Part shown: positions 10,331 through 42,770 of the stretch, piece after piece | How positions within the stretch are numbered: position 1 is the first letter of the stretch | Layout: every line of letters begins with the position of its first letter | Source of the DNA: an uncultured Chloroflexia bacterium | GTDB taxonomy: Bacteria; Chloroflexota; Limnocylindria; Limnocylindrales; CSP1-4 | Assembly: GCA_963712585.1 (NCBI GenBank) | Contig: CAVQIH010000012.1 | Location: 36,692-100,691, forward strand | Direction: 5' to 3' | Length of the DNA: 64,000 nucleotides | Program-made: the position numbers and the translations under genes | The notes under the pieces: model-generated | What the model was told of the DNA's origin: nothing | The model's input: the letters and a program-made list of their open reading frames with translations, nothing else | Database searches by the model: none

Positions 10331-10448
10331 GCTGCACCTCCTGCCGGGGACGCAACTCTCTGTTCAGCGCTTCTCGAAGGAATAGGCCGCCAGCCCGACG
10401 CACCTGCCAGCCTGGAGACCCCGACATCGCGCGCGATGTCTCACCGTG

Positions 10449-21239: not shown

Positions 21240-22020
21240 CGAGCGGCGACCTGCACGTCGACGTCACCATCCGCAACGACACCGGCGACTGGAGCGCGAT
21301 GCAGGCGACGCCGGCGCGGCCGGCCGTCCTCACCACGAGCGACGGCAAGACGACGGACTGCGGCACGGTCTTCGTCGGCACGGGCGGCACGAGCCTCGCG
21401 CCCGGGCTTCCAGATGCGCGGCTACACGGGCGGCACGAAGGCGAAGCCGAGACCCAGCTCCTCTACGTCGAGTGCGCAGGGCGCCGCGGCTGCTGCCGGA
21501 TCGAAGCCTCTCGATCAGCTACAGCTACGTCACGGGCGAGTTCAACTACTACTCGCCGTCGACTCCAACGAGCGCCAAGCTCGACCTCGATCTCGACAAG
21601 GTCGCCACGGACCTGACGTATCCGGTCGCCACGCCGGTCGACGGCCTGATCGAGAAGCCGGGCGACCAAGATCGACGCCATCAACAACTGCCCGCTCACC
21701 CTCACGGGGGTCGACGCGCACCGCCGACGGCCTGGAATTCCGCTGGCACACGGAGAACCCGACCGCGTACCCGACCTACGTCCACATCGGGATCCCGCCG
21801 GTCATCGGCTCCGACGGCATCATCTACGGCCTCTACGAGAGCCCCCATCTCGCGGACACGCCGATCACGCCGGCCGGGCAATCGGCGGACTGGACGACCG
21901 AGGTCGCGGTCCCCAAGGACGTCACCGGCCTGTACATCCTGCGTGAGCGTCGAGTCAAAGCAGCAGAAGAACTTCGTCAGCCATGCCATCGACATCACCG
22001 ACCACGTAGCCTCGGGGAGT
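21240..22020 (+). pseudogene. hypothetical protein, frameshifted
   Basis: Composite ...TIRNDTGDWSAMQATPARPAVLTTSDGKTTDCGTVFVGTGGTSLAPG../..SISYSYVTGEFNYYSPSTPTSAKLDLDLDKVATDLTYPVATPVDGLIEKPG../..LEFRWHTENPTAYPTYVHIGIPPVIGSDGIIYGLYESPHLADTPITPAGQSADWTTEVAVPKDVTGLYILRER. No family recognised. Confidence 0.3.
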
Positions 22021-22028
22021 GAAGCACG

Positions 22029-23554
22029 ATGAAGCCGCTGGGCCAGTTCGAAGTCTGGTTCGTCACCGGCAGCCAGGAGATGTACGGGGACGCGACGCTT
22101 CGCCAGGTCGCGGCGAACGCCCGGCGGATCGCCGACGCGCTCGACGCGCTCGGCAGGCGATCCCGGTGCGGATCGTCTACCGGCCCGGTCGTGACGTCGC
22201 CCGAGAGCATCGCCGCGGCCTGCCGCGAGGCGAACGCGACCGACGCCTGCGTCGGGGTGATCGCTCTGGATGCACACCTTCTCGCCGGCCCGGATGTGGA
22301 TCGGCGGGCCTCCAGGCGCTCCACAAGCCGCTCCTCCACCTCCACACCCAGTTCAACCGCGATCTCCCCTGGGGCGAGATCGACATGGACTTCATGAACC
22401 TCAACCAGTCGGCCCACGGCGACCGCGAGTTCGGGTTCATCGAGACCCGCCTGCGGCTCGCCCGCAAGACCGTCGTCGGCCACTGGCAGGACCCCGACGT
22501 CGCGCGAGCGGATCGGGGCCTGGTCACGGGCGGCCTGCGCCTGGCACGAGGCGCACCGCCTCCGGGTGGCGCGGTTCGGCGACAACATGCGCCACGTCGC
22601 GGACACCGAGGGCGACAAGGTCGAGGCGCAGATCCGTCTCGGCGTGGCGGTCAACGGCTACGGCGTGAGCGACCTCGCCGCCGCGATCGGGTCGGTGTCC
22701 GGAGCCGACGTCGACGAGCTGCGTCGCCGCGCTATGACGCCGACTACGACGTCGTCGCCCGAGCTCGGGCCGGACGGAGCGCGCCGCGCCGAGCTGCGCG
22801 AGGCAGCCCGCATCGAGGCCGGCCTGCGCGTCTTCCTCGAGGTCGGCGGCTTCGGCGCCTTCACCGACACCTTCGAGGACCTCGACGGCCTGCGTCCAGC
22901 TGCCGGGCCTCGCCGTCCAGCGGCTCATGGCCGACGGCTACGGCTTCGGCGCCGAGGGGGACTGGAAGACCGCCGTCCTGGTCCGCCTGCTCAAGGTGAT
23001 GGCGACCGGCCTGCCCGGGCGGGACCTCCTTCATGGAGGACTACACCTACCACCTCGACCCGGAGGGGCCGAAGGTCCTCGGCGCCCACATGCTCGAGGT
23101 CTGCCCGTCGATCGCCGCCGAGCGACCCGCGCTGCGAGATCCATCCGCTCTCGATCGGCGCGCAAGCCGGACCCGGTCCGGCTCGTCTTCGACGCCGCGC
23201 CCGGCGACCGGCGGTCGTGGTCGGCCATGATCGATCTCGGCGACCGCTTCCGGCTCGTCGCCAACGAGATCGACATCGTCGAGCCGACCGAGCCGCTGCC
23301 CACGCCTGCCGGTCGCCCGGGCGGTCTGGCGAGCCGCGGCCCGACCTGCGACCGGCGACCGAGGCGTGGCTGATCGCCGGTGGGTCGCACCACACCGTCC
23401 TCAGCCAGGCGATCGGGATCGGAGCCCCTCGCCGACTTCGCCGAGATGGCGCGCATCGAGCTCCTCTCGATCGACGAGGACACGACCGTGCGCGCCGTCC
23501 GCAACGAGACTGCGCTGGAACCAGGCGTACTACCGCCTGGCCGGCGGACTCTGA
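22029..23554 (+). pseudogene. araA: L-arabinose isomerase AraA, several apparent frameshifts
   Basis: N-terminus [21 protein letters not shown] matches AraA. Later fragments ..[36 protein letters not shown].., ..[41 protein letters not shown].. are in other frames. Confidence 0.75.
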
Positions 23555-23573
23555 GGCCGCAGGAGGGATCCAC

Positions 23574-25296
23574 GTGGCTGCGAAATGCGCGATCGGCATC
23601 GACTTCGGGACAGAGTCGGGCCGCTCGGTCCTCGTGTCGCTGGCGGACGGCCGAGAGCTGGCCCAGTCGGTCTACGGATACCGGAACGGGGTGATCGACG
23701 ATCACCTGCCCGCTCCGCACGGGGGGCAACGCCTGCCGCCTGACTGGGCGTTGCAGGATCCCGAGGATTACGTGCGGACTGTTCAGCAGACCGTGCCGGC
23801 CGTGCTCCGGGCCTCCGGTGTGGATCCGGTCGACGTCGTGGGCGTCGGCATCGACTTCACCGCCTGCACGATGATGCCCACGACCGCCGACGGGACACCG
23901 CTCTGCGTCCTGCCGGAGTGGCGGGCGAATCCGACACGCCTGGGTCAAGCTGTGGAAGCATCACGCGGCCCAGCCGGAGGCGGACCTGATCAATGCGACA
24001 GCCCGGCGCCTGGGTGAGAGCTGGCTGGCGAGGTACGGCGGCAAATACTCCTCGGAGTGGTTCTTCAGCAAGGCGCTCCAGATCCTCGACGAGGCCCCGG
24101 AAGTTTACGCGGCGGCGGACCGGCTCCTCGAAGCCGCCGACTGGATCGCCTGGCAGCTCACCGGCTCGGAGACACGTAACCTGACGACCGCCGGCTACAA
24201 GGCGATGTGGTCCAAGCGCGACGGCTTCCCCCGCGGCGAGTACTTCGCGGCGCTCGACCCACGGTTCGCCCGAATCGTGGACGACAAGATGAGCCGCGAC
24301 ATCCGCGCCCTGGGAGAGCCTGCCGGCGGGCTCTCGCCCCAGGCGGCCGCCTGGACGGGCCTGCCCGCCGGGACGCCCGTCGCCATCGCCAACGTCGATG
24401 CCCACGTGTCCGTCCCCGCGGTAGGGGTAACCGGGCCAGGAACGCTCGTCGCGATCATGGGGACGAGCATCTGCCACATGGTCCTCGGCAGCGAACTGCA
24501 CGACGTCGAGGGGATGTGCGGCGTCGTCGATGGCGGCATCCTGCCCGGCATGTTCGGGTACGAGGCAGGCCAGTCGGGGGTCGGCGACATCTTCGCGTGG
24601 TTCGTCGACAACTGCGCTCCCGGCGCCATGCGCGACGAGGCCGCGACCCGGGGCGTCGACCTCCACGCGCTCCTCGAGGCCGAGGCGGCGAAGCTGCGGC
24701 CCGGCGAATCGGGCCTCCTCGCACTCGACTGGTGGAATGGCAATCGCTCCGTGTTGGTCGACGTCGACCTGAGTGGCGTGCTGCTTGGCGCCACGCTCGC
24801 GACGCGGGCACCGGACGTCTATCGCGCGCTCATCGAGGCGACCGCGTATGGGACGCGGGTCATCTGCGACACCTTCGCCGAGAACGGAGTCGCGGTCGAC
24901 GACATCGTCGCCTGCGGCGGACTCCCGGAGCGCAATCGACTCCTCATGCAGATCTACGCCGACGTCACCGGGAGGCGCATCCGGGTGAGCGCGTCGTCAC
25001 AAACGCCGGCGCTCGGGTCCGCGATGTGGGCGGCGGTCGCTGCGGGCGGGCGCGCCGGAGGCTACGACACGATCGAGGACGCCGCGGCGCGGATGGCCCA
25101 CCTGCGCGACGAGGCGTACGAACCCATCGCCAGTCACCACGCGACGTACGACCGCCTCTACCGCGAGTACGTGCGCCTGCACGACTACTTCGGGCGCGGG
25201 GAGAACGACGTCATGAAGACGCTTCGGGGGATCCGCGCGGATGCCGTCGGGCATGGGGGCGCCGGACCAGCCGGCGCGGGTGCCCCGCATGTCTGA
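23574..25296 (+). CDS. araB: ribulokinase AraB (one apparent frameshift near 23940-23990)
   Basis: RBS aggaggg, then GTG. FGGY-kinase N-terminus CAIGIDFGTESGRSVLV.., ..GYKAMWSKRDGFPRGEYFAALDPRF.., C-terminal ..CGGLPERNRLLMQIYADVTGRRI... The stop overlaps the araD start (ATGTCTGA). Confidence 0.8.
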
Positions 25297-26005
25297 GCGC
25301 TCCACGGACAGCGGGAATCTCCGCGAGCGCGTCTGCGCAGTCAACCTCGGCCTGGTGAAGGCGGGGCTCGTGGTCCTGTCGTTCGGCAACGCCAGCGCGG
25401 TCGACCGCGATCGAGGGATCGTCGCCATCAAGCCGAGCGGGGTCGCCTACGAATCGTTGCGTCCGGAGGACATCGTCCTGGTCTCGCTCGAGGACGGCCG
25501 GCTCATCGAGGGAACGAAGCGTCCGTCCTCCGACACACCGACCCATCTGATCCTCTATCGGGCGTTCCCGTCGGCGGGAGGCATCGTCCATACGCATTCG
25601 GTCCATGCCTCGAGCTGGGCCCAGGCTGGACGAGAGATCCCCTGCCTGGGGACGACCCATGCGGATCACTTCCGGGGAGCCGTGCCGGTGACGCGGGCAC
25701 TCTCCGATCAGGAGATCGCCGGAGACTACGAGACGCATACCGGCCTGGTGATCGTGGAGCGCTTCCAAGCCGGCGGGATCGATCCTGCCGAAGTCCCGGC
25801 TTGCCTGGACGTCAGGCACGGCCCCTTCGTGTGGGGAGCGTCGCCAGAAGAGGCACTGGCGAACGCGATCGCGCTGGAGCATGTCGCGGCCATGGCGCTC
25901 AAGACGCTGGCGCTTGCCCCGGGGATCGGTGCCGCGCCCGAGGCGCTGGTGGAGCGCCATTTCCATCGCAAGCACGGAGCCGGCGCCTACTACGGCCAGC
26001 CCTGA
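25291..26005 (+). CDS. araD: L-ribulose-5-phosphate 4-epimerase AraD
   Basis: Class II aldolase/epimerase fold: ..VVLSFGNASAVDRDRGIVAIKPSGVAYESL...GGIVHTHSVHAS... Intact. Confidence 0.85.
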
Positions 26006-26025
26006 CAGCGGGGTCGCCCTCGACG

Positions 26026-26056
26026 CCGCGGCCGCAGCCGACTTCCTCGGCCGCGG
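26026..26056 (+). terminator. GC-rich hairpin downstream of araD (stem CCGCGGCCG/CGGCCGCGG), no U-tract
   Basis: 9-bp perfect inverted repeat 20 nt after the araD stop. Terminator-like but weak, since no T-run follows. Confidence 0.3.
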
Positions 26057-26228
26057 ACAGAGACTCCTGAGCTCGCTCGGCTCGACCTTCGGCTCGTAGT
26101 GCTGTCGCGCTCTCCCGTCGGCTGCTTCGCCGACGCGGTCCCGGAGCGCCACGGCGTCGTCACCGGCCGGATGGGCCGTCTGGCCCCAAACCACGGGACT
26201 ACCGGCTCATCCCATCTATACGCCTAAG

Positions 26229-26255
26229 GCATATATAAGCTCTGTACGTATATGC
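26229..26255 (+). promoter_or_regulatory. AT-rich imperfect palindrome GCATATATAAGCTCTGTACGTATATGC, candidate ArsR-family operator/promoter
   Basis: The only AT-rich island in about 5 kb of 70% GC sequence, 50 nt upstream of the arsR-family GTG start. Inverted half-sites GCATATA...TATATGC. ArsR/SmtB repressors typically bind 12-2-12 type AT-rich inverted repeats overlapping their own promoter. Confidence 0.45.
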
Positions 26256-26306
26256 GCCCTGGGCGAATACCTCCCGGGACCACGCCAGGGCGCAAAGGAG
26301 CGGACC

Positions 26307-26678
26307 GTGCTGCGTGGCGACGACATCGACGAGCTCCAGGCCTCGCTGCTGCGGACACTGGCGAGCGCACAGCGGCTCAAGATCATCCACCTGCTTGGCG
26401 TCGGGCCGTCTGAGGTCAGCGAGATCGCGCGCGATCTCGGCCTGAGCCAGACGGCTGCCTCCCAGCACCTGGCCGCCATGCGTTCGGCGGGCCTCGTCAC
26501 TGCCCTGCGCGACGGGCGGACGGTCCGTTACTGCCTGACCGATCCGGAGATCCCGGCGGTGTGCGGTCTCATGCGCGACGTGCTGGTCCGCCGGCTGTCG
26601 CGCCTGGGCGACCTCGCGGCAGCGGCCAATCGGCCAACCGATTCCGTCGTCCACACCGATCAGGCGGGGCATCGATGA
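26307..26678 (+). CDS. ArsR/SmtB-family transcriptional regulator (two-Cys, possibly persulfide- or redox-sensing)
   Basis: RBS aaaggag, then GTG. wHTH ..LASAQRLKIIHLLGVGPSEVSEIARDLGLSQTAASQHLAAMRSAGLV..DGRTVRYCL.. with two Cys (RYC...AVCG). The stop overlaps the dsrE-like ATG (ATGA). Confidence 0.85.
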   Translation: MLRGDDIDELQASLLRTLASAQRLKIIHLLGVGPSEVSEIARDLGLSQTAASQHLAAMRSAGLVTALRDGRTVRYCLTDPEIPAVCGLMRDVLVRRLSRLGDLAAAANRPTDSVVHTDQAGHR

Positions 26679-27082
26679 GCGATTGCCTGTCCCTCGTGCT
26701 CTTCTCGGGGACCGCCGACAAGCTCCACGCCGCGGCCACCCTGGCCGCCGGTGCCGCCGCCATGGGTCGACCAGTCAACGTGCTGCTCATGTACTGGGCC
26801 CTGGACGCATTCCGCGCGGACGGCATCACCGCGGACCACGGCCTCGCCTATGACTCCGAACGGCCCGGATCCAGTGAGCCGGTCGACGGCGCGGGGGCGA
26901 TCCCGTGGCTGGAGACCTTCAGGCAGGCGAAGGAGCTCGGCGAGGTGACGATCTGGGCCTGCTCCGGATCGCTCTCCACGCTCGGGATCGATGCCGCGGC
27001 CCTCGATCCGCTGGTCGACGGGTCCGGCGGGGTCGCCACGTTCCTGCTGGCCGCCGACGACGGCCAAATCCTGTTCATCTGA
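26675..27082 (+). CDS. DsrE/DsrF-like family sulfur-relay protein
   Basis: 135-aa protein MSDCLSLVLFSGTADKLHAAATLAAGAAAMGRPVNVLLMYWALDAF...IWACSGSL.. The DsrE-fold signature (VLFSG..DK...A...A.A.G..V.V) and a candidate active-site Cys are present. Confidence 0.65.
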   Translation: MSDCLSLVLFSGTADKLHAAATLAAGAAAMGRPVNVLLMYWALDAFRADGITADHGLAYDSERPGSSEPVDGAGAIPWLETFRQAKELGEVTIWACSGSLSTLGIDAAALDPLVDGSGGVATFLLAADDGQILFI

Positions 27083-27136
27083 TCGCGCGCCACATCGCCG
27101 CAACGAACAGCCTCGTCTACTGAAGGAGACGCCGTC

Positions 27137-27403
27137 ATGACCGCCACCGCAGCCGAAAGCGCCCTCGAGACCATCGCCGCCGACAAGGTCGTCGACGCCC
27201 GGGGCGCCGCCTGTCCAGGCCCGCTCCTGGAGGCCAAGAAGGGCATCGGCACGCTGCCGATCGGCTCCGTCCTCGAGCTCTGGTCGAGCGATTCGGTGAC
27301 CAAGGCCGACGTCGCCGCGTGGGCCGGCAAGGTGGGCCATGCCTACCTCGGCTCGTTGGCCGCAGACGGCTACGACCGCGTCTTCGTCCGCCGCGAGAAG
27401 TAG
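27137..27403 (+). CDS. tusA: TusA-like sulfurtransferase (CPxP motif)
   Basis: 88-aa protein with ..VDARGAACPGPLLEAKKGI... ACPGP is the TusA/SirA persulfide-carrying Cys motif. Confidence 0.85.
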   Translation: MTATAAESALETIAADKVVDARGAACPGPLLEAKKGIGTLPIGSVLELWSSDSVTKADVAAWAGKVGHAYLGSLAADGYDRVFVRREK

Positions 27404-27480
27404 GTGGTCGAAGGCAACCGGCCAAGGCTGGGGCACCGGACTATGCCGCCGGCAGCCACCCGGCCAGGAGCAGCCGCCCG

Positions 27481-27939
27481 ATGACCGCGCTCGCCGCCAC
27501 CGAGGTGCCGCGGAGCACGAAGCCAGGGTTCGCCCCCCGGATCCTGGTCTTCTCCACCAACAACATCTCGGACCCCGGGATCGACCTGGCCGGGAGCTCG
27601 CACCTGCACTACTCCCCGGGCGTCGTCGTCATCGGGCTGCCCTGCACGAGTGGGATCAGGCCGTCGTGGATCCTCCACGCCATCGAGCGCGGGTTCGACG
27701 GCGTCTTCATCGCCGCGGACGGCGACGAGTGCGCCTACCTGGTGGATTGTGCGAAGCGGGCCTCGCGGATCGTGGCTGACGCGCAAGCGCTCCTGCGGGC
27801 GAACGGCCTCCAGACCCAGCGGTTGAAGATGGCCGCCATCTGCTCCGTCTGCGCCGATCCGTTCACCAAGTATGTCCAGCAGTTCACGCAGGCGCTCGCC
27901 GAGCTGGACCGGCCGGAGGAGGCACGTCATGGACTATGA
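27481..27939 (+). CDS. mvhD: MvhD/FlpD-like hydrogenase iron-sulfur subunit domain protein (partly degenerate Cys set)
   Basis: ..RILVFSTNNISDPGIDLAG..YSPGVVVIGLPCTSGIRPSWILHAIERGFDGVFIAADGDECAYL... aligns to the MvhD pattern (FxCNWCxYxGADLAG ... VMCSGR ... DGVLVxGCHxGDCHY), but the first two Cys are replaced by N/S. The stop overlaps the downstream HdrA ATG. Confidence 0.65.
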   Translation: MTALAATEVPRSTKPGFAPRILVFSTNNISDPGIDLAGSSHLHYSPGVVVIGLPCTSGIRPSWILHAIERGFDGVFIAADGDECAYLVDCAKRASRIVADAQALLRANGLQTQRLKMAAICSVCADPFTKYVQQFTQALAELDRPEEARHGL

Positions 27940-30631
27940 CGTGCTGGTCGTGGGGAGCGGGATCGGCGGAATGGAGTCCGCGCTCAAGCTCGGCGACATG
28001 GGCTACCGCGTCCTCCTGGTCGAGAAGGAGGCCAGCGTGGGCGGGAAGATGATCCTGCTCAGCAAAGTCTTCCCCACCCTCGACTGCGCGAGCTGCATCT
28101 CGACTCCCAAGATGGCGGCCACGATCCACCATCCCAACATCACCGCACTCACCTACAGCGAGGTTGGAGGGATCACCCAGAGCGGCGAGGGGCATTTCAG
28201 GGCCAGCATCCGCCAGAAGGCGCGCTTCGTCGACGAGGCGCGCTGCACGGGGTGTCAGCTCTGCGAGATCGCCTGCACCGTGGCTGTGCCCGATCAGTTC
28301 AACGCCGACCTCGTGGCCAGGCGGGCCGCCTACATCGCCTTTCCCCAGGCGGTGCCGAAAAAGGCGGTCATCGAGCGCGCGGGCGCCTCGCCCTGCTCGC
28401 ATACCTGCCCGGCCGGGATCCCTGCCCATGGTTACGTCTCGCTGATTCGGAGTGGCGAGTTCGAGAAGGCTTTCCAGCTGGTTCTCGACGTCACGCCCCT
28501 CGTGGGGACGCTGGGTCGGGCCTGCTACGCGCCGTGCGAGGCCGACTGCACACGCGGCCTGCTCGAGGGGACGCTCCCGATTCGGCGCCTGAAGCGCTTC
28601 GCCGCGGACACCCATTACCGGGGCGCGGACGGCCCGGGGATCACCGCCCCGGCTCCCAACGGACGAAAGGTGGCGGTCGTCGGCTCCGGGCCGGCCGGCC
28701 TGACCGCCGCCTGGCAGCTGGCGCGGAAGGGCTACCTGGTCAAGATCCTCGAGGCCGCCCCGGAGCCCGGAGGCTTCCTGCGCCTGGCCATTCCCGCCTA
28801 TCGCCTGCCGGCCGAGGTCGTCGAGCGCGACATCGAGAACGTCACGGCGCTGGGCGTGGAGATTGCCACCGGCACGCGGGTCGACGACCTCGAGGACCTG
28901 CGCGGCCAGGGGTTCGACGCGGTCCTGGTGGCGACCGGAACGCCGCGGTCTACGACGCTGGGACTGACTGGGCAGGACCTTCACGGCGTCGTCACCGGCC
29001 TGGAGTTCCTCCGTGGAGTGAGACTCGGCCAGGCGGCCGACCTGCAGGCAAAGCACGTGGTCGTGGTCGGCGGAGGCAACGTGGCCATGGACGCCGCCCG
29101 CACCGCTCGACGCATGGGGGCCCGCCAGACGACCGTTCTCTACCGGCGCGGCCACCAGGAGATGCCGGCCCACGTCGCCGAGGCGGAGGACGCCCGCCAG
29201 GAGGGCGTCGAATTCCAGTTCCAGGTCGCTCCCGTCGAGGTGCTCGATGACGGTCGCGGCAGTGTGGGCGGTGTGCGCTGTCGCCGCATGGCGCTCGGCG
29301 CGCCCGACCAGTCCGGTCGCCGGCGCCCGGCGCCAATCCCCGGCAGCGAGTTCACCATCGACTGCGAGGCGGTGATCATCGCCATCGGCATGGCCCCCGA
29401 CACCGAGACGTTCGCGACGCGAGTGTCGGCCAACGCGGACGGCACACTCCGTGTCAACCCCCAGACACTCCAGACTCCCGTCCCGTACATCTTCGCGGCG
29501 GGCGATGTCGTGACCGGTGCCACCGACATCACGCGGGCCGTCGGGCAGGGCCGCCGGGCCGCCTTCATGATCGACCGTTGGCTCCAGGGTCACGAGCTCA
29601 GCGGCTTCGACGACGAGCTCCCGGTCGTCGACAAGCTGCACGTCCTGGAGCGACAGCGGCAGTACACGCATCGCGAGCCGCCCGCGCCAGCCGTGCGGCC
29701 ATCCGTCGCACCTGGCGATTTCGCAGAGCTGGAGCCGCCGATGGGCGAGGCCGAGGCGCGCGAGGCCGCCGGGCGGTGCCTCGACTGCGGTGTGTGCTCG
29801 GAGTGCGGTGAGTGCGTGGCTGCCTGCCCTGCCTTTGCCATCGACCTGAGGATGCGCGAGCGAGAGCGCAAGGTCGAGGTCGGTGCAGTCGTCGTCGCCA
29901 CCGGCTTCAGGCTGTTCCCGGCCGATCTCAAGCCGGAATACGGGTACGGCACGTTCAAGAACGTGATCACCGGGCTGCAGATGGACCGCCTCCTCGCCCC
30001 GACCCGACCGTTCCACACGATCCTCCGGCCGGGCGACGGCAAGGTTCCCGAGCGCATCGCCTACGTGATGTGCACGGGCTCCCGCGACGAGACCGTTGGC
30101 AACCCGCTGTGCTCCAAGTTCTGCTGCATGTACTCGATCAAGCAGAACCAATTGATCATGGGGGCCCTGCCGCTGGCCGACGTGACCGTGCACTACATGG
30201 ACATCCGCGCGGCCGGCAAGCGCTACGACGAGTTCTACGAGCAGGCCAAGTCCATGGGGGCCACCTATGTCAAGGGCCGGGTGGCCAAGATCACCGAGAA
30301 GGACGACGGCAACCTCGTCCTGCACTACGAGGACATCGAGCACGGGGGAGCCCTTGCCGAAGCTGAGTACGACCTGGTGGTGCTGGCGGTCGGCGTTCAA
30401 CCGAACAGCGACGCCCAAGCCCTGTTCCCGGCCGGCGAGCTGTCGCTCGACGAGTACCACTTCGTGGCAGAGCCGGACGAGGACCTGAATCCCGGCCAGA
30501 CCAGCATCCCCGGGGTCTACGTGGCCGGCGCCGCCTCCGGGGCCAAGGACATCACCGACTCGATCCTGCACGCGGGCGCGACCGCGGCGCAGGTCGCGGC
30601 CCACCTCGAGCGGCTGAAGGTGCCGGCATGA
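27929..30631 (+). CDS. hdrA: HdrA-like flavoprotein with an inserted NfnB/GltD-type NAD(P)H:FAD oxidoreductase module (HdrL-like fusion, 900 aa)
   Basis: Starts MDYDVLVVGSGIGGMESALKLGDMGYRVLLVEKEASVGGKMILLSKVFPTLDCASCISTPK (HdrA FAD site plus the PTxDCxxC motif). Then a ferredoxin motif CTGCQLCEIAC. Then the GltD/NfnB N-terminal Fe-S signature PCSHTCPAGIP...GRACYAPCEADC. Then two Rossmann motifs (KVAVVGSGPAGLTAAWQLARKG ... HVVVVGGGNVAMDAART) and YIFAAGDVVTG. Then 4Fe-4S CLDCGVCSECGECVAACP. Then the HdrA C-terminal signature CTGSRDETVGNPLCSKFCCMYSIKQ ... GVYVAGAASG. Uninterrupted ORF. Confidence 0.8.
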   Translation: MDYDVLVVGSGIGGMESALKLGDMGYRVLLVEKEASVGGKMILLSKVFPTLDCASCISTPKMAATIHHPNITALTYSEVGGITQSGEGHFRASIRQKARFVDEARCTGCQLCEIACTVAVPDQFNADLVARRAAYIAFPQAVPKKAVIERAGASPCSHTCPAGIPAHGYVSLIRSGEFEKAFQLVLDVTPLVGTLGRACYAPCEADCTRGLLEGTLPIRRLKRFAADTHYRGADGPGITAPAPNGRKVAVVGSGPAGLTAAWQLARKGYLVKILEAAPEPGGFLRLAIPAYRLPAEVVERDIENVTALGVEIATGTRVDDLEDLRGQGFDAVLVATGTPRSTTLGLTGQDLHGVVTGLEFLRGVRLGQAADLQAKHVVVVGGGNVAMDAARTARRMGARQTTVLYRRGHQEMPAHVAEAEDARQEGVEFQFQVAPVEVLDDGRGSVGGVRCRRMALGAPDQSGRRRPAPIPGSEFTIDCEAVIIAIGMAPDTETFATRVSANADGTLRVNPQTLQTPVPYIFAAGDVVTGATDITRAVGQGRRAAFMIDRWLQGHELSGFDDELPVVDKLHVLERQRQYTHREPPAPAVRPSVAPGDFAELEPPMGEAEAREAAGRCLDCGVCSECGECVAACPAFAIDLRMRERERKVEVGAVVVATGFRLFPADLKPEYGYGTFKNVITGLQMDRLLAPTRPFHTILRPGDGKVPERIAYVMCTGSRDETVGNPLCSKFCCMYSIKQNQLIMGALPLADVTVHYMDIRAAGKRYDEFYEQAKSMGATYVKGRVAKITEKDDGNLVLHYEDIEHGGALAEAEYDLVVLAVGVQPNSDAQALFPAGELSLDEYHFVAEPDEDLNPGQTSIPGVYVAGAASGAKDITDSILHAGATAAQVAAHLERLKVPA

Positions 30632-32364
30632 GCGAGCGGCGGATCGGGGTCTACGTCTGTCACTGCGGCGGGAACATCTCCGACTACGTCGACGTGGACG
30701 AGGTCGTGGCCCAGGTCAGGGGCGATGCCGACGTGGTCGTGGCCCGCACGGCCATGTTCGCCTGCTCGGACGCCACCCAGCAGGAGATGCTCCAGGACAT
30801 CGCGGAGCACAAGCTCGACGGCCTGGTCGTCGCCTCGTGCTCGCCCAAGCTGCACACCTACACCTTCCGCGGAGTGGCGGCCCGGGCCGGTCTGAACCCC
30901 TACGAGTACTCCCAGGTGAACATCCGGGAGCAGTGCTCCTGGGTGCACACCGACGACCCAAAAGGGGCCACCAGCAAGGCAACCGGCCTGGTGAAGGCGG
31001 GCATCGCCCGAACCAGGCTGACGACGCCCCTCGAGCCGATCGTCGTCGAGACGGTCCCCAAGACGCTGGTGATCGGGGGTGGCATCGCCGGCCTGCGGGC
31101 GGCGATCGGGCTGGCGAGGATCGGGCTCGGCGTCTTCCTGGTCGAACGCGAGGCGGAGCTCGGGGGCTGGGTGGGCCGCTTCGGCCCGATGTACCCCCAC
31201 GGGCGGGACGGCGCAGAGCTGATCGCCGGCCTCGTGCAGGAGGTCCGGGCCAACCCTTCGATCACCGTGTTCATGGGGGCCGAGGTCGTCAGCAAGGCGG
31301 GCAGTTTCGGCAACTACCAGGTCGGCATCCGGGTCAAGTCGACGCCGCCGCAGACGATCCAGCTCGAGGTCGGCTCGCTGGTCGTGGCCACCGGGTTCGA
31401 TGCCTACCAGCCGGAAGCCGGGGAGTATGGCTACGGGATCGGAGGCGTGCTGACGCTGCCGGAGTTCAAGGAGCTGATCGACCGGTCGGCGGGACGGCTC
31501 ACCTACCAGGGGAGGCCGGTCGGGACCGTCGTCTATGTCTACTGCGTCGGCAGTCGGCAGGCCGCCGAACCGCCCGGGGCCAACGCGTACTGCTCGCGCT
31601 ACTGCTGCGCGGCCACCGTCCAGGCCTCGATCCAGGTCGCGGGGCTCGACCCGAAGGTCCACCAGTACCACCTCTACCGCGACATGCGGACGTACGGCCG
31701 GTACGAGCTGCTGTACACGGAGTCTCGGAAGAAGGGCTCGGTGTACGTGAAGTTCGCCGATGGTGCTCCACCCGCCGTGACCAGGCTGGATGACGGGCGG
31801 CTGATGGTCAACGTGCGAGATCTCTTGACAGGCGGCGAGGAGCTCGCGATCCCGGCAGACCTGGTCGTCCTGGTCACCGGCATGGTCCCCCGGAGCAACG
31901 CCGATCTGGTGCGGGCCCTCAAGGTGCCGGTGGGTACGGACGGGTTCTTCAACGAGATCCACCCCAAGTTGCGGCCGGTCGAAACCGTAGTGGATGGCGT
32001 CCTCATCGCCGGGGCCTGTCAGGGGCCGAAGAGCTCGGCCGAGGCGGTGGCTTCCGGTCTGGCCGCCGTCACCCAGAGCGCCGCCGTCTTGAAGAAGGGC
32101 TATGCCGAGCTGGATCCGCTGATCGCGGAGGTCGACACCGACGCCTGCAGTGGATGCGGCGAATGCCTCGCGGCCTGCCCGTACGAGGCCATCCAGATGG
32201 CCGACCTGAACGGCCGGGCGGTCGCCGTCATCAGCGAGACCGGCTGCAAGGGCTGTGGCGGATGCGTGCCCCTCTGCCCGGAGAACGTGATCGATCTGCG
32301 GGGCTATGCCGATGCCCAGATCACCGCCATGATCGACAGCCTGCTCGAGGTCCCGGTCGGATGA
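30628..32364 (+). CDS. HdrA/QmoB-like flavoprotein with N-terminal Cys-cluster (MvhD-like) domain and C-terminal 2x[4Fe-4S] ferredoxin domain
   Basis: N-terminus RIGVYVCHCGGNISDYVD...FACSDAT...VVASCSPKLH is the HdrA N-terminal cluster domain. FAD site TLVIGGGIAGLRAAIGLARIGLGVFLVERE. HdrA signature CVGSRQAAEPPGANAYCSRYCCAAT. C-terminal motifs CSGCGECLAACP and CKGCGGCVPLCP. ATGA overlap with the upstream gene. Confidence 0.8.
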   Translation: MSERRIGVYVCHCGGNISDYVDVDEVVAQVRGDADVVVARTAMFACSDATQQEMLQDIAEHKLDGLVVASCSPKLHTYTFRGVAARAGLNPYEYSQVNIREQCSWVHTDDPKGATSKATGLVKAGIARTRLTTPLEPIVVETVPKTLVIGGGIAGLRAAIGLARIGLGVFLVEREAELGGWVGRFGPMYPHGRDGAELIAGLVQEVRANPSITVFMGAEVVSKAGSFGNYQVGIRVKSTPPQTIQLEVGSLVVATGFDAYQPEAGEYGYGIGGVLTLPEFKELIDRSAGRLTYQGRPVGTVVYVYCVGSRQAAEPPGANAYCSRYCCAATVQASIQVAGLDPKVHQYHLYRDMRTYGRYELLYTESRKKGSVYVKFADGAPPAVTRLDDGRLMVNVRDLLTGGEELAIPADLVVLVTGMVPRSNADLVRALKVPVGTDGFFNEIHPKLRPVETVVDGVLIAGACQGPKSSAEAVASGLAAVTQSAAVLKKGYAELDPLIAEVDTDACSGCGECLAACPYEAIQMADLNGRAVAVISETGCKGCGGCVPLCPENVIDLRGYADAQITAMIDSLLEVPVG

Positions 32365-32606
32365 GCGCCCCGCGAGAGACCCGCGAGATCGTCCGCGAGG
32401 AACCCCTCATGCGGCGGCGGATCCTGGCCGTGCTCGCGGAAGGGCCGCGGACGATCCCCGAGATCGGCGCCGCGATCGGCAGCCCTACCCATGAAGTCCT
32501 GCTTTGGGTGATGGGCATGCGCAGGTACGGCTACATCGCCGAGGTCAAGGGCGACAGCGAGGACGGCTACTTCCGATACCGGGCCCTGGAGAGGGTCGCG
32601 CCATGA
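32361..32606 (+). CDS. small winged-helix (MarR/ArsR-like fold) protein embedded in the hdr operon
   Basis: 81-aa protein MSAPRETREIVREEPLMRRRILAVLAEGPRTIPEIGAAIGSPTHEVLLWVMGMRRYGYIAEVKGDSEDGYFRYRALERVAP. ATGA start overlap with the upstream stop, and its stop overlaps the next start, so it is translationally coupled on both sides. Confidence 0.5.
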   Translation: MSAPRETREIVREEPLMRRRILAVLAEGPRTIPEIGAAIGSPTHEVLLWVMGMRRYGYIAEVKGDSEDGYFRYRALERVAP

Positions 32607-33808
32607 CCAGCGTGACCGTGCAGCAGCTGGATCCGGACCTGTACTCGCAGCTCCAACGGTTCGGCGCGACCGACATCTCGGCCTGCTTCAACTGCGGCAC
32701 TTGCACCGCGATCTGCCCATTGTCGGAGCACGACGCGACCTTCCCCCGGCGGATCATCCGCTACGCACAGGTCGGCATGAAGGACGCCCTCCTCTCGAGC
32801 AAGGAGCTCTGGAGCTGCTACTACTGCGGCGAATGCTCGGAGACCTGCCCCACGCAAGCCGGTCCGAGCGAGTTCATGGCCGCCGCCCGGCGCTTCGCGA
32901 TTGCCAGCTACGACCGAACGCGACTGGCGCGGACGATGTATACGAGCCCCATCGTCGGGACCCTGGTCGCCGTGCTCCTGGCGGCCTTCTTCGCCCTCTT
33001 CATGTACGCCGGTCGGGGCCCTCAGAACACCCGATCGCTAGCCCTCTTCGAGTTCGTGCCAGCCGAGCTCGTTCACGACATCGGCATCGCGGTCATGATC
33101 GCCGTCTTCCTGGCCGGCCTCGTTGGCGTGGCCAGCATGGCGAGACGGATCGGGCGCTCCGAGGGCGTCGGCTGGCGAACGGTAATCGGCAGTCGCCCGG
33201 CGATTGGCCGATCGCTGCGAGCGCTCTGGGTCGCGCTTGGGCGCGAGTCGCTCGGCCAGCGGCGCTACCGGAACGAGTGCGAGTCCGCCCAGGAGCCGTT
33301 ACCCTGGTACCGCCGTCGGTGGCTGCTCCACGCGACCATCATGTGGGGCTTTCTGGGTCTGTTGGGCGCCACGATCCTCGACTATGGCCTGGCCCTGGCC
33401 GGCGTCAAGGCGACCGGGACCCCGGTGCCGATCTGGTACCCCGTTCGTTTGCTGGGGACCGTCGCAGGCGTAGCCCTCATGTACGGCACGACCATGGTCA
33501 TCAGCGACCGGCTGCGCGGCGCCAACCGGTCGGTCGTCCATTCCACGTCCGCGGACTGGACGTTGCTGACGCTCCTCTGGCTGGCCGGCGTGACCGGCTT
33601 TGTGCTGGAGCTCGCGCTCTATCTGCCGGACGCCCCGACCTGGGGCTACTGGGTATTCCTGTTCCACGTGGCGGTCGCCATGGAGCTCGTGCTGCTGGCC
33701 CCGTTCATGAAGCTCGCCCATGCCGTCTATCGGCCGGTCGCCCTCTTCTTCGTGGCGCTCGCCCAGGCGCCCGGAGACGGTGGCTCCGGCCACCCGACCG
33801 GCAGCTAG
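32603..33808 (+). CDS. QmoC-like protein: HdrC-type 2x[4Fe-4S] domain fused to HdrE/NarI-type six-helix membrane (putative dihaem cytochrome b) domain
   Basis: N-terminal CFNCGTCTAICP and CYYCGECSETCP (HdrC pattern), then six hydrophobic helices with conserved His (HDIGIAVM, LHATIMWG, FHVAVAMEL, LAHAVY). Same architecture as QmoC. Confidence 0.7.
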   Translation: MTSVTVQQLDPDLYSQLQRFGATDISACFNCGTCTAICPLSEHDATFPRRIIRYAQVGMKDALLSSKELWSCYYCGECSETCPTQAGPSEFMAAARRFAIASYDRTRLARTMYTSPIVGTLVAVLLAAFFALFMYAGRGPQNTRSLALFEFVPAELVHDIGIAVMIAVFLAGLVGVASMARRIGRSEGVGWRTVIGSRPAIGRSLRALWVALGRESLGQRRYRNECESAQEPLPWYRRRWLLHATIMWGFLGLLGATILDYGLALAGVKATGTPVPIWYPVRLLGTVAGVALMYGTTMVISDRLRGANRSVVHSTSADWTLLTLLWLAGVTGFVLELALYLPDAPTWGYWVFLFHVAVAMELVLLAPFMKLAHAVYRPVALFFVALAQAPGDGGSGHPTGS

Positions 33809-33897
33809 CGAGGCGACTTGTGACGACGTCAACCGTGATCCCGGGCTTGGATCGGAACCAGCAGGCCCCGACCGCCTGACTACCGAGGAGGTATCTG

Positions 33898-34390
33898 ATG
33901 ATGTCGATTCTGCCGCGGGTGGCGCACGAACACCACGAGCGACTCCTGCACCACGTCGATCAACTCCCAACCGTGGGCGACCTGATCGGGGTACTCCCGC
34001 TCGCCGAACTCCGCCCGGATCGGCGAGGCGTGCGGCTTCCTGAGCGGGCTCCTCATTCCCCACATGGAGGCCGCTGAAGGGACCCTCTACCCGGAGCTCG
34101 AGCGCCTCCTCCAGAACCGTCATTCGATGACACCGATGCGGCGCGAGCACGCCGAGATCCGGCGGCTGGTGGGCGAGCTCGGGCGGTTGCAGGAGGAGAT
34201 GGACGGCGGCCGGTTCTCGACCGGCGAAGCGGTCGCGCTCCGTCGTGTCATCTTCCGCCTCTACGCGCTGCTGAAGGTCCATCTCGCCGAGGAGCAGCTC
34301 TACATCGGGATCGTCGAGCACGGGGTCTCCGCCGAGGCCGCCGACGCCCTGGCGAAAGCGATGGAGCACGTCGGGACCGCGGAGTTCTGA
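33898..34390 (+). CDS. hemerythrin-like (HHE cation-binding) domain protein, one apparent frameshift near 34010
   Basis: RBS ggagg. MMSILPRVAHEHHERLLHHVDQLP.., then after the shift ..HMEAAEGTLYPELERLL..REHAEIRRLVGEL..LKVHLAEEQ (H-x3-E repeats). Paralog of the 35018-35539 gene. Confidence 0.55.
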
Positions 34391-34640
34391 TCGAAGCCAG
34401 CCGCTTCGGCACACCCCGCTCGAGGCCGCTATGCTCCAGACGCATATGGATGCGTCGAGCCAGAGAGCGCGGAGGACCGGCGGACGACCCGGGGCTCAGC
34501 ACGACCTCGAGCCTGGCGAGGAGCCTGCGGGACTCGACGACGGGACCGGGGTCGACTCCGCGACCGTGGCGTCCGACCGCGACGCAGCCGGCGTGCCGGT
34601 CCATCGCGGATGGGCTCCGCTCGGCGGGCGACGGCGGTGG

Positions 34641-34994
34641 ATGGAGCCGTTCGTGCTCGTCCTTCTCGCGGGTGGTGGCGCCCATGGCTACGCGATCACC
34701 GGCCAGCTCGAGGAGATGGGCATCACCGGTGGTTCGGTCGATCTCGGACAGGTGTACCGCACCCTGCGCGACCTCGAGCAGGCCGGCCAAGTGACCTCGA
34801 GCTGGTCAACCGAATCCGTGGGTCCCCAGCGGCGCGACTACGAGCTGACCGAGGCCGGCTACACGGCCCTCGACGAGTGGGCAGCGGTCATGAAGGCGCG
34901 AGCACGACTCGTCGCCGAGTTCGAGGCGCGCTACCTCGAGTCGGTCGCCAGCCCCAGGCGGTGGGCCCAGGGGGGCGATCCTCCGCGGCCCTGA
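34641..34994 (+). CDS. PadR-family transcriptional regulator
   Basis: MEPFVLVLLAGGGAHGYAITGQLEEMG...GQVYRTLRDLEQAGQVTSSW...RRDYELTEAGYTAL. The ORF extends upstream to 34431 with an Arg/Pro-rich region of doubtful reality. Confidence 0.75.
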   Translation: MEPFVLVLLAGGGAHGYAITGQLEEMGITGGSVDLGQVYRTLRDLEQAGQVTSSWSTESVGPQRRDYELTEAGYTALDEWAAVMKARARLVAEFEARYLESVASPRRWAQGGDPPRP

Positions 34995-35017: not shown

Positions 35018-35539
35018 CTACAAGGGCTCGGCGACGGCGTGCTCGATGCCCCGGGCGAGCAGGTCCTTCTCCTGCACCGACAGGTTGTGGTCGAGGACGC
35101 CCAGGTAAAGCTCTTCTTCCGCAAGGTGGACCTTGAGGATCGCGTAGAGGCGGTAGAGAGCGCGCCGCAGGCCCATGCCCTCGGCCGGGTTGAGGCCTCC
35201 CGTGGCAAGGTCGGCCCGGTACTCACCGAGAGCGTCGATGAGCCGACGGAGGTCGGCGTGCTCGCGACGCATCGGGGCCATCGAGTGGCGGCCCTCCATG
35301 AGCCTTTCGAGCCGCCCGTAGAGGGTCGTCTCGATCGCTTCCATGTGCGGGACGAGCTGACCGACGATGAAGCGGTATTCCGCCTCGAAGCTCACGCGGA
35401 AGGCGGCCGGGGGCTCACGGCCGATCATCTCCGCGAGCTCGGGCAGACGATCGACGTGCGCCTCGATCCTCTCGTGATGCTGGTGGCTGGTCCGCGCGAG
35501 CGACTCGGCGTCTGGCGTGTCCGTGGGCTCCGGGGGCAT
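35018..35539 (-). CDS. hemerythrin-like (HHE cation-binding) domain protein, paralog 2
   Basis: MPPEPTDTPDAESLARTSHQHHERIEAHVDRLPELA...HMEAIETTLYGRLERLM..REHADLRRLIDALG..LKVHLAEEELYLGVL. Roughly 45% identical to the 33898 gene. Divergent orientation. Confidence 0.6.
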   Translation of the reverse strand: MPPEPTDTPDAESLARTSHQHHERIEAHVDRLPELAEMIGREPPAAFRVSFEAEYRFIVGQLVPHMEAIETTLYGRLERLMEGRHSMAPMRREHADLRRLIDALGEYRADLATGGLNPAEGMGLRRALYRLYAILKVHLAEEELYLGVLDHNLSVQEKDLLARGIEHAVAEPL

Positions 35540-35644
35540 GGCCAACAGTGTACGGGGCAACGGACGCACTCTTCGCGCCTGACTCACGGCCCTTGCGGTG
35601 GCGCCCGCGCCGCCCGAGGATGACGGTCTCGGGAGGTGCCGCCC

Positions 35645-36657
35645 ATGACCGACTGGCGCGACCGGCTCAACGCCGATCCCCTGCCCTGGCTCCTCGAAGA
35701 CGAGACGCCCGCCGTCCGGCACCTGGCACTCCGCCAGCTGCTCGACCGGTCGGCCGACGACCCCGACGTGATGGCGGCGCGGGACGCCGCGACGCGCGCC
35801 GACCCGATCGCGGCGATCTTCGCCGCCCAGGATCCGGCCGGCTGGTGGGCCAAGCCGGGACCCGGCTACGCCCCAAGTACAGCGGCACGGCCTGGCAGCT
35901 CATCTTCCTCGACCAGCTGGGGGCCGACCCGGACCAACCCGCGGTCGCCGCGGGCTGCGACTACGTCCTCTCCCACTCCCAGGCGACCTCGGGCGGCTTC
36001 GGGGCGTCATCGGTGCGTACCTCGTCTGCACCGCCGCCGTCGATGGTCATCCACTGCCTCAACGGCAACCTCCTGCGCGCCCTGGTGGGCTTCGGTCGCC
36101 TGGACGACGAGCGGGTTCAACGGGCCGTCGAATGGCAGGCTGCCGCCATCACCGGCGAGGGTGAGATCCGCTTCAACGCCATCACCCCCGGACCGGGCTT
36201 CCGCTGCGGCGCGAACGAGGGGCTCCCGTGCGGCTGGGGGGCCACCAAGGCAGTCCTCGGCCTGGCCCGCATCCCGCCCGAACGGCGCGGCCCGCGCGTC
36301 CAGCGGGCCCTCGACGCCGGGGTCGACTTCCTCCTCAGCCGCGACCCTGCCACCGCGGACTACCCAATGGGCTACGGGAACACCAAGCCGAGCAGCTCGT
36401 GGTTCAGGCTCGGCTTCCCCTCAGGCTACGTCGGCGACGTCCTCCAGGTGCTCGAGGCCCTCTGCGAGGCCGGCGCGGCCCACGATGGTCGCCTCGGCCC
36501 AGCCGTGGCGTGGCTGCTCGGCCAGCAGGACCGCGCCGGCCGCTGGGAGAACCGCTACGCCTACGCGGGCAAGATGATCGTCGACATCGACCAGCCGGGC
36601 CGCCCGAGTCGCTGGGTCACCCTGCGCGCTTGTCGCGTCCTCAAGGCCGTCGCTTAA
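35645..36657 (+). CDS. hypothetical protein, possible prenyltransferase/terpene-cyclase-like alpha-alpha toroid repeat protein (one apparent frameshift near 35873)
   Basis: MTDWRDRLNADPLPWLLEDETPAVRHLALRQLL...WWAKPGPGYAP|KYSGTAWQLIFLDQLGADP...GWGATKAVLGLARIP...GRWENRYAYAGKMIVDIDQPGRPSRWVTLRACRVL. The fold assignment is tentative. Confidence 0.35.
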
Positions 36658-42419: not shown

Positions 42420-42504
42420 CCGGGACGCTCCGCAGATCCGCCGCGGACGCGGTTTGAGCGCACCGAGGGACCTCCGGGACGAAGGAGAACGCTGTCATGT
42501 CGCC

Positions 42505-42710: not shown

Positions 42711-42770
42711 GTCTAGCCAGACGATCGCAGTGGAGGTCCGCCGCTCGGCACCCGGACCGCCGCGGGCGGC

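Follow-up and report, generated by a model that had tools for sequence, protein, structure and literature searches.

The 64-kb stretch of DNA analysed here (the window; ~70% GC), from an uncultured Chloroflexia bacterium, holds an intact operon of eight genes at 26307–33808 on the + strand. Its products are an ArsR-family regulator, a DsrE2-like protein, the sulfur carrier TusA, an MvhD/FlpD-like protein, two HdrA-type flavoproteins (one, HdrL, fused to an NAD(P)H-binding module of the GltD/NfnB type), a small winged helix-turn-helix (wHTH) protein and a QmoC-like membrane subunit. Every module is known, and Qmo-like complexes have already been noticed beyond the sulfate reducers; the TusA/DsrE–HdrL–HdrA–wHTH–(QmoC/HdrCB) module as a whole appears to be uncharacterised. 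We put at roughly one half the probability that it encodes a membrane-anchored bifurcating or confurcating complex of NAD(P)H, menaquinone and a low-potential partner, served by a TusA/DsrE sulfur relay. The features are:

26229–26255, no strand: candidate operator ahead of arsR, an AT-rich inverted repeat (GCATATA-N13-TATATGC)
26307–26678, + strand: arsR, ArsR/SmtB winged-helix regulator, 123 aa, GTG start (Pfam HTH_5, 3e-13)
26675–27082, + strand: dsrE-like gene, DsrE2-like (DrsE_2, PF13686) sulfur-transferase fold, 135 aa (Pfam, 1.8e-9)
27137–27403, + strand: tusA, sulfur carrier with a CPxP motif (ACPGP), 88 aa (Pfam TusA PF01206, 1.5e-15, 57 bits)
27481–27939, + strand: mvhD-like gene, MvhD/FlpD-like protein, 152 aa (Pfam FlpD, 3.7e-27, 95 bits)
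27929–30631, + strand: hdrL, hdrA::gltD/nfnB fusion, 900 aa (Pfam, NCBIfam and PDB matches)
30628–32364, + strand: hdrA2, second HdrA, 578 aa (NCBIfam HdrA models)
32361–32606, + strand: wHTH gene, minimal winged-helix protein, 81 aa, Cys-free (AlphaFold2 (AF2) model, Foldseek)
32603–33808, + strand: qmoC-like gene, HdrC-type 2×[4Fe–4S] amino-terminal domain and multi-helix NarI-like membrane domain, 401 aa (NF038018)

From the observed gene content, domain architecture, cofactor-ligand conservation, synteny and two alternative output modules we infer complex formation, NADPH use, quinone coupling and bifurcation, together with possible directions of electron flow and a sulfur substrate. At the centre of the complex would be a heterodimer of HdrA-type subunits that complement each other, in which HdrL would provide the HdrA flavin adenine dinucleotide (FAD) domain and admit NAD(P)H through its GltD/NfnB-type NAD(P)H:FAD module, and HdrA2 would supply the amino-terminal cluster domain and the carboxy-terminal 2×[4Fe–4S] ferredoxin domain absent from HdrL. 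The QmoC-like subunit (two [4Fe–4S] clusters and a NarI-like b-type cytochrome domain) would link this heterodimer to the menaquinone pool. Flavin-based electron bifurcation, or its reverse, would take NAD(P)H as the mid-potential two-electron partner; the high-potential leg would be menaquinone in the window and an HdrCB disulfide/persulfide site in sister loci, and the low-potential partner, reached via the HdrA2 ferredoxin domain and/or the MvhD-like protein, might be ferredoxin or protein-bound sulfane sulfur. A relay that brings or removes sulfur would consist of TusA and the DsrE2-like protein, whose active-site Cys are both invariant.

A conserved core and its terminal genes

All eight open reading frames (ORFs) are present on the + strand with strong GC3 periodicity (third-position bias 0.81–0.92), as a preliminary description of this DNA had proposed; gene starts were chosen for consistency with homologues. 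The profile searches that it had called for bear out its domain-by-domain anatomy, the Pfam and NCBIfam matches being, by gene order, HTH_5/ArsR–SmtB; DrsE_2; TusA; FlpD; Pyr_redox_2, Fer4_20 and HdrA; HdrA and 2× Fer4; and qmoC NF038018. Exact ATGA overlaps lie at 26675, 30628, 32361 and 32603; a fifth had been counted at 27929, where the mvhD-like and hdrL genes in fact overlap by 11 nt and the sequence is ATGG. Four 4-nt overlaps and one of 11 nt indicate coupled translation, and the wHTH gene is coupled on either side, through its overlaps with hdrA2 and the qmoC-like gene. Genes of the araA/araB/araD type lie upstream, and two hemerythrin genes with a PadR gene between them lie downstream, which marks the eight genes as a discrete unit. 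A promoter and terminator scan of 26000–34400 gave nothing informative.

The system is widespread, not rare: the HdrL fusion occurs in at least 593 GTDB species (one genome scanned per species), and a search of cluster representatives at 90% identity yields more than 7000 homologues (E ≤ 1e-20), of which the best 120 are 74–79% identical to HdrL, the window's own sequence (100%) aside. Carriers among the named loci belong to Chloroflexota, Actinomycetota (Propionicimonas, Phycicoccus, Gaiellales, Thermoleophilia and Acidimicrobiales), Bacillota (Desulfofundulus thermobenzoicus, Symbiobacterium, Peptococcaceae and Thermaerobacter), Gemmatimonadota, Acidobacteriota and Ignavibacteriales. They include the cultured Propionicimonas sp. 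T2.31MG-18 and D. thermobenzoicus DSM 14055, and also metagenome-assembled genomes (MAGs) assigned to Thermaerobacter and Symbiobacterium. Our synteny survey covered the 80 best related loci. The order tusA–mvhD–hdrL–hdrA2–wHTH is kept in 80 of 80, and such recurrence across several phyla places the arrangement far beyond chance. With regard to the co-occurrence that the preliminary description had proposed to check, hdrL recurs with tusA/DsrE genes and, in 50 loci, with a QmoC-like gene.

The gene after this core is QmoC-like, the window type, in those 50 loci; in 19 others it is replaced by a 100-aa HdrC and a 319-aa CCG-domain HdrB (for example, L044:7459–8415 with PF02754), and 11 loci end before the terminal gene. 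HdrCB thus takes the place of QmoC in 19 of the 69 informative loci. Chloroflexota and Actinomycetota each contain both variants, which shows that the swap has occurred repeatedly. One terminal module or the other at this position is the pattern expected of an exchangeable high-potential leg. It mirrors an exchange in canonical Qmo, where Gram-positive sulfate reducers have HdrCB instead of QmoC (PMC4149029; also PMC10504309). A search for the CCG domain of HdrB drew a blank in the eight ORFs and in the scanned neighbours. The absence of HdrB, which had been put forward as a trait of the system, therefore stands for the window cluster but not family-wide: given the 19 loci with HdrC and HdrB, it marks a variant. 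In one Bacillota MAG (L063) the core is followed directly by dsrE2 and arsR (9812–11280); QmoC and HdrCB are both missing from a contig that runs on beyond these genes, an arrangement that may be a third variant.

Conserved partners were sought by all-versus-all clustering of the ORFs from 81 loci. The recurrent families are the core, ArsR and the DsrE types, joined in Chloroflexota only by hemerythrin and PadR; a rhodanese-like family is limited to 9 loci, and none of Apr, Sat, Dsr, sulfide:quinone oxidoreductase (SQR), persulfide dioxygenase or ferredoxin emerged from this clustering as a recurrent neighbour. Nor were AprA, AprB, Sat or Dsr domains found in the scanned ORFs of the window (part of all its ORFs), which supports the absence of aprAB and sat from it.

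This distribution bears on the possibility that the operon encodes a type II Qmo serving an adenosine 5′-phosphosulfate (APS) reductase or a sulfite metabolism encoded elsewhere in the genome. Two HdrA-like proteins with an MvhD module and a full-length match to the qmoC model do make up the Qmo layout. Most of the named hosts are not known to be sulfate reducers, and the constant partners are TusA and DsrE rather than Apr, which is missing from the scanned window ORFs and, like Sat and Dsr, not conserved beside the 80 loci. Type II Qmo itself, as described by Neukirchen et al. (2023; PMC10504309), has QmoAB nearer to HdrA than bacterial QmoAB and a distinct QmoC; its function is unresolved there, and its hosts may have or lack Dsr/Apr. 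That paper notes type II QmoABC, its QmoAB resembling HdrA, in two sulfate reducers, Vulcanisaeta moutnovskia and Ammonifex degensii; an NfnB/GltD fusion, a link to TusA/DsrE and a winged-helix subunit go unmentioned in it (PMC10504309). The window cluster fits the description of type II, and we regard service to APS reductase or sulfite metabolism as very improbable.

Subunits, cofactor ligands and sulfur carriers

HdrL carries in one polypeptide the HdrA hallmarks PTxDCxxC and CSxxCC and a GltD/NfnB FAD, NAD(P)H and Fe–S module, and its PDB matches are to HdrA and to NfnB/GltD-type chains. With residues 152–606 swapped for a linker, the remainder aligns in one piece to methanogen HdrA 143–564. 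The GltD/NfnB module (~152–606: FAD Rossmann fold, NAD(P)H Rossmann fold and Fer4_20 clusters) is therefore spliced inside the inserted ferredoxin domain of HdrA, between its two Cys motifs, and HdrL, aligning to 143–564 only, is without the HdrA amino- and carboxy-terminal domains. The complete NAD(P)H module that had been proposed to lie inside an HdrA is thus confirmed by Pfam, NCBIfam and PDB matches and its insertion point mapped; the alignment to methanogen HdrA likewise confirms the TrxR-like HdrA FAD domain. All cluster Cys are invariant (including C53, C56, C715, C728, C732 and C733), as are both GxGxxG Rossmann motifs and Y405-R406-R407, a YRR motif that suggests NADPH as the nucleotide. 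C56 aligns to the Cys/selenocysteine (Sec) position of HdrA; Sec occurs in none of the eight genes, and Cys stands at the HdrA Sec position.

HdrA2 supplies what HdrL lacks. It has an amino-terminal Cys4 domain, a TrxR-like FAD domain and a carboxy-terminal 2×[4Fe–4S] ferredoxin domain, confirming the second HdrA-like flavoprotein with an amino-terminal cluster domain and two carboxy-terminal ferredoxin motifs of the preliminary description. Against NCBIfam HdrA models, residues 5–236 match profile positions 1–232 and residues 242–574 match 322–652; the ~90 positions skipped show that the inserted ferredoxin domain is missing. C11, C13, C46, C71, C306, C322, C326 and C327 are invariant. From their alignments, the domains of HdrL and HdrA2 look complementary, as if the HdrA homodimer had been divided into a heterodimer in the manner of QmoA/QmoB.

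The MvhD-like protein matches FlpD clearly, and two of its cluster Cys had been read as replaced by Asn and Ser. The loss goes further: alignment to solved MvhD/VhuD chains shows that the entire amino-terminal CCNWC motif (canonical CCxxC) has become STNNI and that one later Cys is Asp. Two canonical Cys, C55 and C84, are kept; together with the further Cys C90, C121 and C124 and with H41 they are invariant in 79 of 79 orthologues.

These three proteins give strong matches to methanogen systems. The Methanosarcina HdrA2 model NF040770 ranks first among the NCBIfam matches of both HdrA2 and the MvhD-like protein and second among those of HdrL, all strong; HdrA2 (5odc_A, 2e-116) and the MvhD-like protein find their best matches in Methanosarcina HdrA2B2C2 and HdrABC–MvhAGD (PDB 5ODC), and HdrL finds there its best match of the HdrA type. 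Both systems are established bifurcating enzymes with a two-electron donor, heterodisulfide and ferredoxin; for M. acetivorans HdrA2B2C2 bifurcation was shown experimentally, and its authors predicted NADH-using bacterial homologues (PMC5296606). The strong NF040770 matches of three subunits make kinship with HdrA2B2C2 count in favour of a bifurcating complex. The methanogen donors are F420H2 or a hydrogenase, whereas the window has a GltD/NfnB-type NAD(P)H module; HdrBC with the coenzyme M–coenzyme B heterodisulfide (CoM-S-S-CoB) is matched here by quinone-linked QmoC as the putative high-potential leg; and, unlike methanogen HdrA, the window divides HdrA functions over two complementary polypeptides.

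The preliminary description had called the system undescribed. Full-text literature searches turned up no paper on the exact combination tusA/dsrE–hdrL–hdrA2–wHTH–qmoC, although subscription-only papers might hold a description; complexes of HdrL, HdrA and MvhD, some with HdrBC, on the other hand, have been described and seen in sulfate-reducer proteomes (PMC2702500, PMC4759654, PMC5947623). Of published systems, these HdrABC/HdrL complexes and type II Qmo stand nearest to the window cluster. HdrL was defined in Db. autotrophicum (PMC2702500), and the HdrABC/HdrL complexes of D. reducens (Dred_1325-30; PMC4759654) and S. fumaroxidans (Sfum_0819-0824; PMC5947623) are abundant and sulfate-induced, with bifurcation or confurcation towards DsrC proposed. 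These share with the window an NAD(P)H-binding HdrL, a second HdrA and MvhD, and with the sister variant HdrC/HdrB. They differ in being soluble, in gene order, in their links to formate dehydrogenase-like proteins, Fe–S proteins and DsrC, and in lacking tusA, dsrE2, the winged-helix gene and QmoC; the window has a membrane anchor in place of HdrBC. An HdrL locus of Desulfurivibrio was considered as the same system and rejected, being linked to formate dehydrogenase and the Wood–Ljungdahl pathway, not to tusA/QmoC (PMC12142623).

The terminal subunit matches the qmoC model NF038018 end to end (residues 13–383 to profile 5–360 of 360, E 1.7e-60), with a score of 205.4 bits that lies below the curated equivalog cutoff of 300. 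HdrC chains match residues 9–102, and the AF2 model, which bears a likeness to NarI and cytochrome b561, has long helices from residue 116 to 388. Among 1.84 billion representatives searched there were 2929 relatives; the most distant that are full length are bona fide QmoC and share 23–30% identity with the window's subunit, and nine out of ten such representatives reach 360–475 bits on NF038018. Eight Fe–S Cys are essentially universal in the family, along with C226, H243, H355, H373, R303, D318 and K370. The architecture proposed earlier, two HdrC-type motifs fused to a multi-helix membrane domain as in QmoC, is thus borne out. An alignment for four haem-ligating His gave a mixed result: H243, H355 and H373 are universal, but the fourth is at column 219 (‘EILxHxRF’) in canonical QmoC, where the window has Gln, and at position 158 in the window lineage (46 of 49). 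A few wider family members have both His 158 and His 219, or neither. C226 is a cytoplasmic-side Cys, nearly universal also when canonical QmoC is included.

Canonical QmoABC (type I; sulfate reducers and Chlorobi) resembles the window cluster in its two HdrA-related flavoproteins, MvhD-type module and HdrC–NarI-type QmoC. In canonical Qmo, QmoA is a small HdrA and QmoB an HdrA fused to MvhD, whereas the window has a 900-aa HdrA::GltD and a separate 152-aa MvhD-like protein; the genes are linked to aprBA/sat there and to tusA/dsrE here, with an extra 81-aa winged helix.

No Pfam or NCBIfam family matched this 81-aa protein, so its fold was obtained by modelling. The AF2 model (predicted local distance difference test (pLDDT) 87.7) is a minimal winged helix, which Foldseek relates to SmtB/ArsR/MarR/Zalpha winged helices (probability 1.0, E ~2e-3). 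The motif WVMGMRRYG is highly conserved across phyla, and the gene stands between hdrA2 and qmoC/hdrC in 73 of the 74 related loci that extend that far, the L076 match lying after hdrC/hdrB. The winged-helix protein, like the MvhD-like one, would be a further subunit or tight accessory of the complex.

TusA and DsrE2-like proteins are likewise conserved. The CPxP Cys of TusA, C26, is invariant in 80 of 80 orthologues and C96 of the DsrE2-like protein in 57 of 57; with the PF01206 and PF13686 matches and a recurrent gene association, the proposed pairing of a DsrE-fold protein with a persulfide-carrier-type TusA holds. In the majority of related loci tusA immediately precedes mvhD, a subset having dsrE2 between mvhD and hdrL, and a DsrE2/DsrE gene is present in 73 of 81 loci at variable position. 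Most close Chloroflexota relatives have a second, classical DsrE (PF02635-type) gene between dsrE2-like and tusA (L002:6825–7175, with equivalents in L003, L004, L015, L018 and others); the window has only a 54-nt spacer at that position (27083–27136).

Such constancy bears on two further readings. A sulfur-independent enzyme could bifurcate among NAD(P)H, menaquinone and ferredoxin in the manner of FixABCX/EtfABCX, with TusA/DsrE acting in cofactor or cluster maturation or as regulatory passengers. FixABCX/EtfABCX combine a pyridine nucleotide as mid-potential donor, quinone as high-potential acceptor and a low-potential Fe–S/flavin acceptor, and the window's three-legged redox architecture, with no obvious sulfur-chemistry site in the QmoC variant, would suit such an enzyme. 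The likeness is functional only, the protein families (electron transfer flavoprotein (ETF) and ETF–quinone oxidoreductase (ETF-QO)) being unrelated and without a sulfur-carrier link; tusA in all 80 loci and near-universal DsrE2 across phyla argue for a direct role, and the replacement of QmoC by HdrCB, a module for thiol/disulfide catalysis, is a further link of the family with sulfur chemistry. This makes sulfur independence quite improbable.

Alternatively, TusA/DsrE sulfane sulfur could be oxidised as in sHdr. QmoC would then pass electrons to menaquinone and the GltD module would pass them to NAD(P)+, so that NADPH would form directly. Some of the named relatives belong to genera described as aerobes, and quinone anchor and NAD(P) module would be usable as electron sinks. 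sHdr is an HdrA complex linked to TusA, DsrE-family proteins (DsrE3) and an ArsR-type regulator (sHdrR), a parallel to the TusA/DsrE association and ArsR genes seen here (PMC11094781). Its defining parts are two HdrB/HdrC pairs (HdrB1/B2, HdrC1/C2), lipoate-binding proteins and their maturation genes (PMC11094781, PMC6776052), with ETF besides. The window cluster has none of these: the lipoate-binding protein, second HdrB/HdrC pair and ETF are not recurrent in the 80 loci either, and the QmoC variant is without an HdrB non-cubane site. Conversely, sHdr lacks QmoC and an NAD(P)H module on its HdrA, and the window has both. We therefore consider sHdr-like oxidation improbable. The hdr/tusA/dsrE cluster of T. 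roseum, taken up as a candidate for the same system, was set aside: it is an sHdr of type II and includes ETF and lipoate-binding proteins (PMC6776052).

The ArsR-family repressor probably controls the operon. Upstream of its gene lies the AT-rich palindrome reported earlier, an inverted repeat with 7-nt arms, 100% complementary, in a patch of 40% GC against the ~70% background; CATATA/TATATG-type repeats also precede arsR in Chloroflexota loci L006, L007, L018, L024, L049 and L065, and the repeat is a candidate operator. The regulator scores 74.8 bits on NCBIfam HTH_metalloreg (cutoff 55) and 39 bits on the BigR model (cutoff 155), and its closest solved relatives include SqrR and YgaV. It had been described as a two-Cys repressor analogous to SqrR/BigR, which the alignments do not uphold. 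C76 is particular to the window (1 of 31 orthologues) and only C86 is conserved (29 of 31). The protein aligns to SqrR 26–99 with I27/H28 at the alpha2 Cys position, so the alpha2 Cys is absent; the single conserved alpha5 Cys, C86, does not align with the alpha5 Cys of SqrR, which we take to be Cys107. A two-Cys persulfide switch is thus not supported as stated.

This result touches a simpler proposal, a non-bifurcating persulfide or polysulfide reductase in which NAD(P)H and/or menaquinol electrons reduce TusA/DsrE sulfane sulfur to sulfide and ArsR senses sulfane sulfur, as in cst/BigR/SqrR operons. NAD(P)H can, on redox potentials, reduce persulfides directly; several of the hosts named are not known for dissimilatory sulfur metabolism; TusA and DsrE2-like proteins with invariant Cys occur in essentially all loci; and an ArsR-family gene, of a kind whose solved kin include SqrR and YgaV, is adjacent in 34 of 81. 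Set against this are the missing SqrR/BigR Cys pair, the lack of consistent linkage to persulfide dioxygenase, SQR or rhodanese, and a machinery of two HdrA, MvhD and HdrC-type proteins with more than 10 Fe–S clusters, far beyond single-subunit NAD(P)H persulfide reductases. We judge such a reductase unlikely but credible.

Neighbouring genes in the window

Three genes directly downstream of the operon are of uncertain membership in the system:

33898–34390, + strand: hemerythrin-domain gene, frameshifted (Pfam Hemerythrin)
34431–34994, + strand: PadR-family regulator (Pfam PadR, 4e-15)
35018–35722, − strand: second hemerythrin-domain gene (Pfam Hemerythrin)

The first is split at ~34016, with residues 1–40 in one frame and 41–165 in another (tblastn, L002 orthologue). 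A hemerythrin family comes just after qmoC in 18 related loci and the PadR family is present in 19; the second hemerythrin gene is 69% identical to its L002 counterpart. Hemerythrin–PadR–hemerythrin is a conserved downstream neighbourhood in Chloroflexota relatives.

Upstream, at 22019–25296 (+), an araA-like gene is split over the overlapping ORFs 22019–22999 and 22566–24017, and an FGGY kinase ORF in the same interval matches the carboxy-terminal domain only. The araA-like split and the other frameshifts suggest indel errors typical of long-read assembly.

A formate-dehydrogenase-like molybdopterin oxidoreductase at 36757–38680 (+) has an in-frame TGA at 37009–37011 (motif SCNRT-U-HAPSVAG) and is probably a selenoprotein. 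The window also encodes SelB (2865–4790, −), SelA (4790–6292, −) and a tRNA-Sec with anticodon TCA (11600–11696, −), which fit its Sec codon. A split of this gene by frameshift alone was rejected, part of it being the TGA for Sec; a further passage from frame 1 to frame 2 near 38105–38125 reflects either a pseudogene or an assembly error. Farther on, 39388–43649 holds a module of the NAD-linked formate dehydrogenase type whose catalytic molybdopterin part is encoded separately upstream: a fused NuoE/NuoF-like protein (39388–41412), a NuoG-like amino-terminal Fe–S protein that ends after Molybdop_Fe4S4 (41409–42419) and, on the strand opposite to these two, FdhD (42771–43649). An MttB-family (trimethylamine methyltransferase-like) gene at 56661–58274 (+) has no obvious in-frame stop and is thus likely a non-pyrrolysine MttB homologue.

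Weight of the bifurcation reading and its significance

Several observations weigh against the membrane-anchored bifurcating complex that we favour. The canonical CCxxC cluster motif at the amino terminus of MvhD is lost. In the QmoC-like subunit the fourth haem-ligand His is off its canonical position (Q219 in the window), and the model is of moderate confidence (pLDDT 71) with no significant Foldseek match, which together leave two-haem binding unsecured. The QmoC variant is without an HdrB-type catalytic site although TusA/DsrE stay conserved, so where sulfur is processed is left unexplained. Reduction of persulfide by NAD(P)H thermodynamically needs no bifurcation, and Thermaerobacter, Phycicoccus and Propionicimonas are described as aerobes or facultative, which makes a need for low-potential ferredoxin less obvious. 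The wHTH protein, finally, could be a regulator instead of a subunit.

A bolder version of the bifurcation reading would make the protein-bound TusA/DsrE2 persulfide itself one of the three redox legs of a new class of bifurcating enzyme, processed not at HdrB but at the five-Cys MvhD-like subunit or the QmoC C226 loop. We hold this to be a speculative outside chance; if true, such a leg would tie persulfide chemistry to NADPH and the menaquinone pool in the energy metabolism of Chloroflexota and Actinomycetota that abound in soil and freshwater and do not count as sulfur respirers.

Flavin-based electron bifurcation has its archetype in HdrA-based complexes, and Qmo is a poorly understood link from the quinone pool to cytoplasmic sulfur reduction. 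In one conserved operon the module described here unites HdrL as the entry for NAD(P)H, QmoC as the quinone link (or else HdrCB) and a TusA/DsrE relay, and its hosts include Chloroflexota and Actinomycetota that are abundant in soil, peat and freshwater. Homologues of the operon genes are labelled in some sources as QmoC or heterodisulfide reductase subunits, labels that could mislead metagenome surveys into sulfate reduction or methanogenesis-type metabolism. If the favoured reading is true, the module would be a widespread, unrecognised connection among pyridine nucleotides, respiratory quinones and sulfane sulfur, and its natural pair of QmoC and HdrCB variants would offer a handle on the roles of both legs in Qmo-type complexes.

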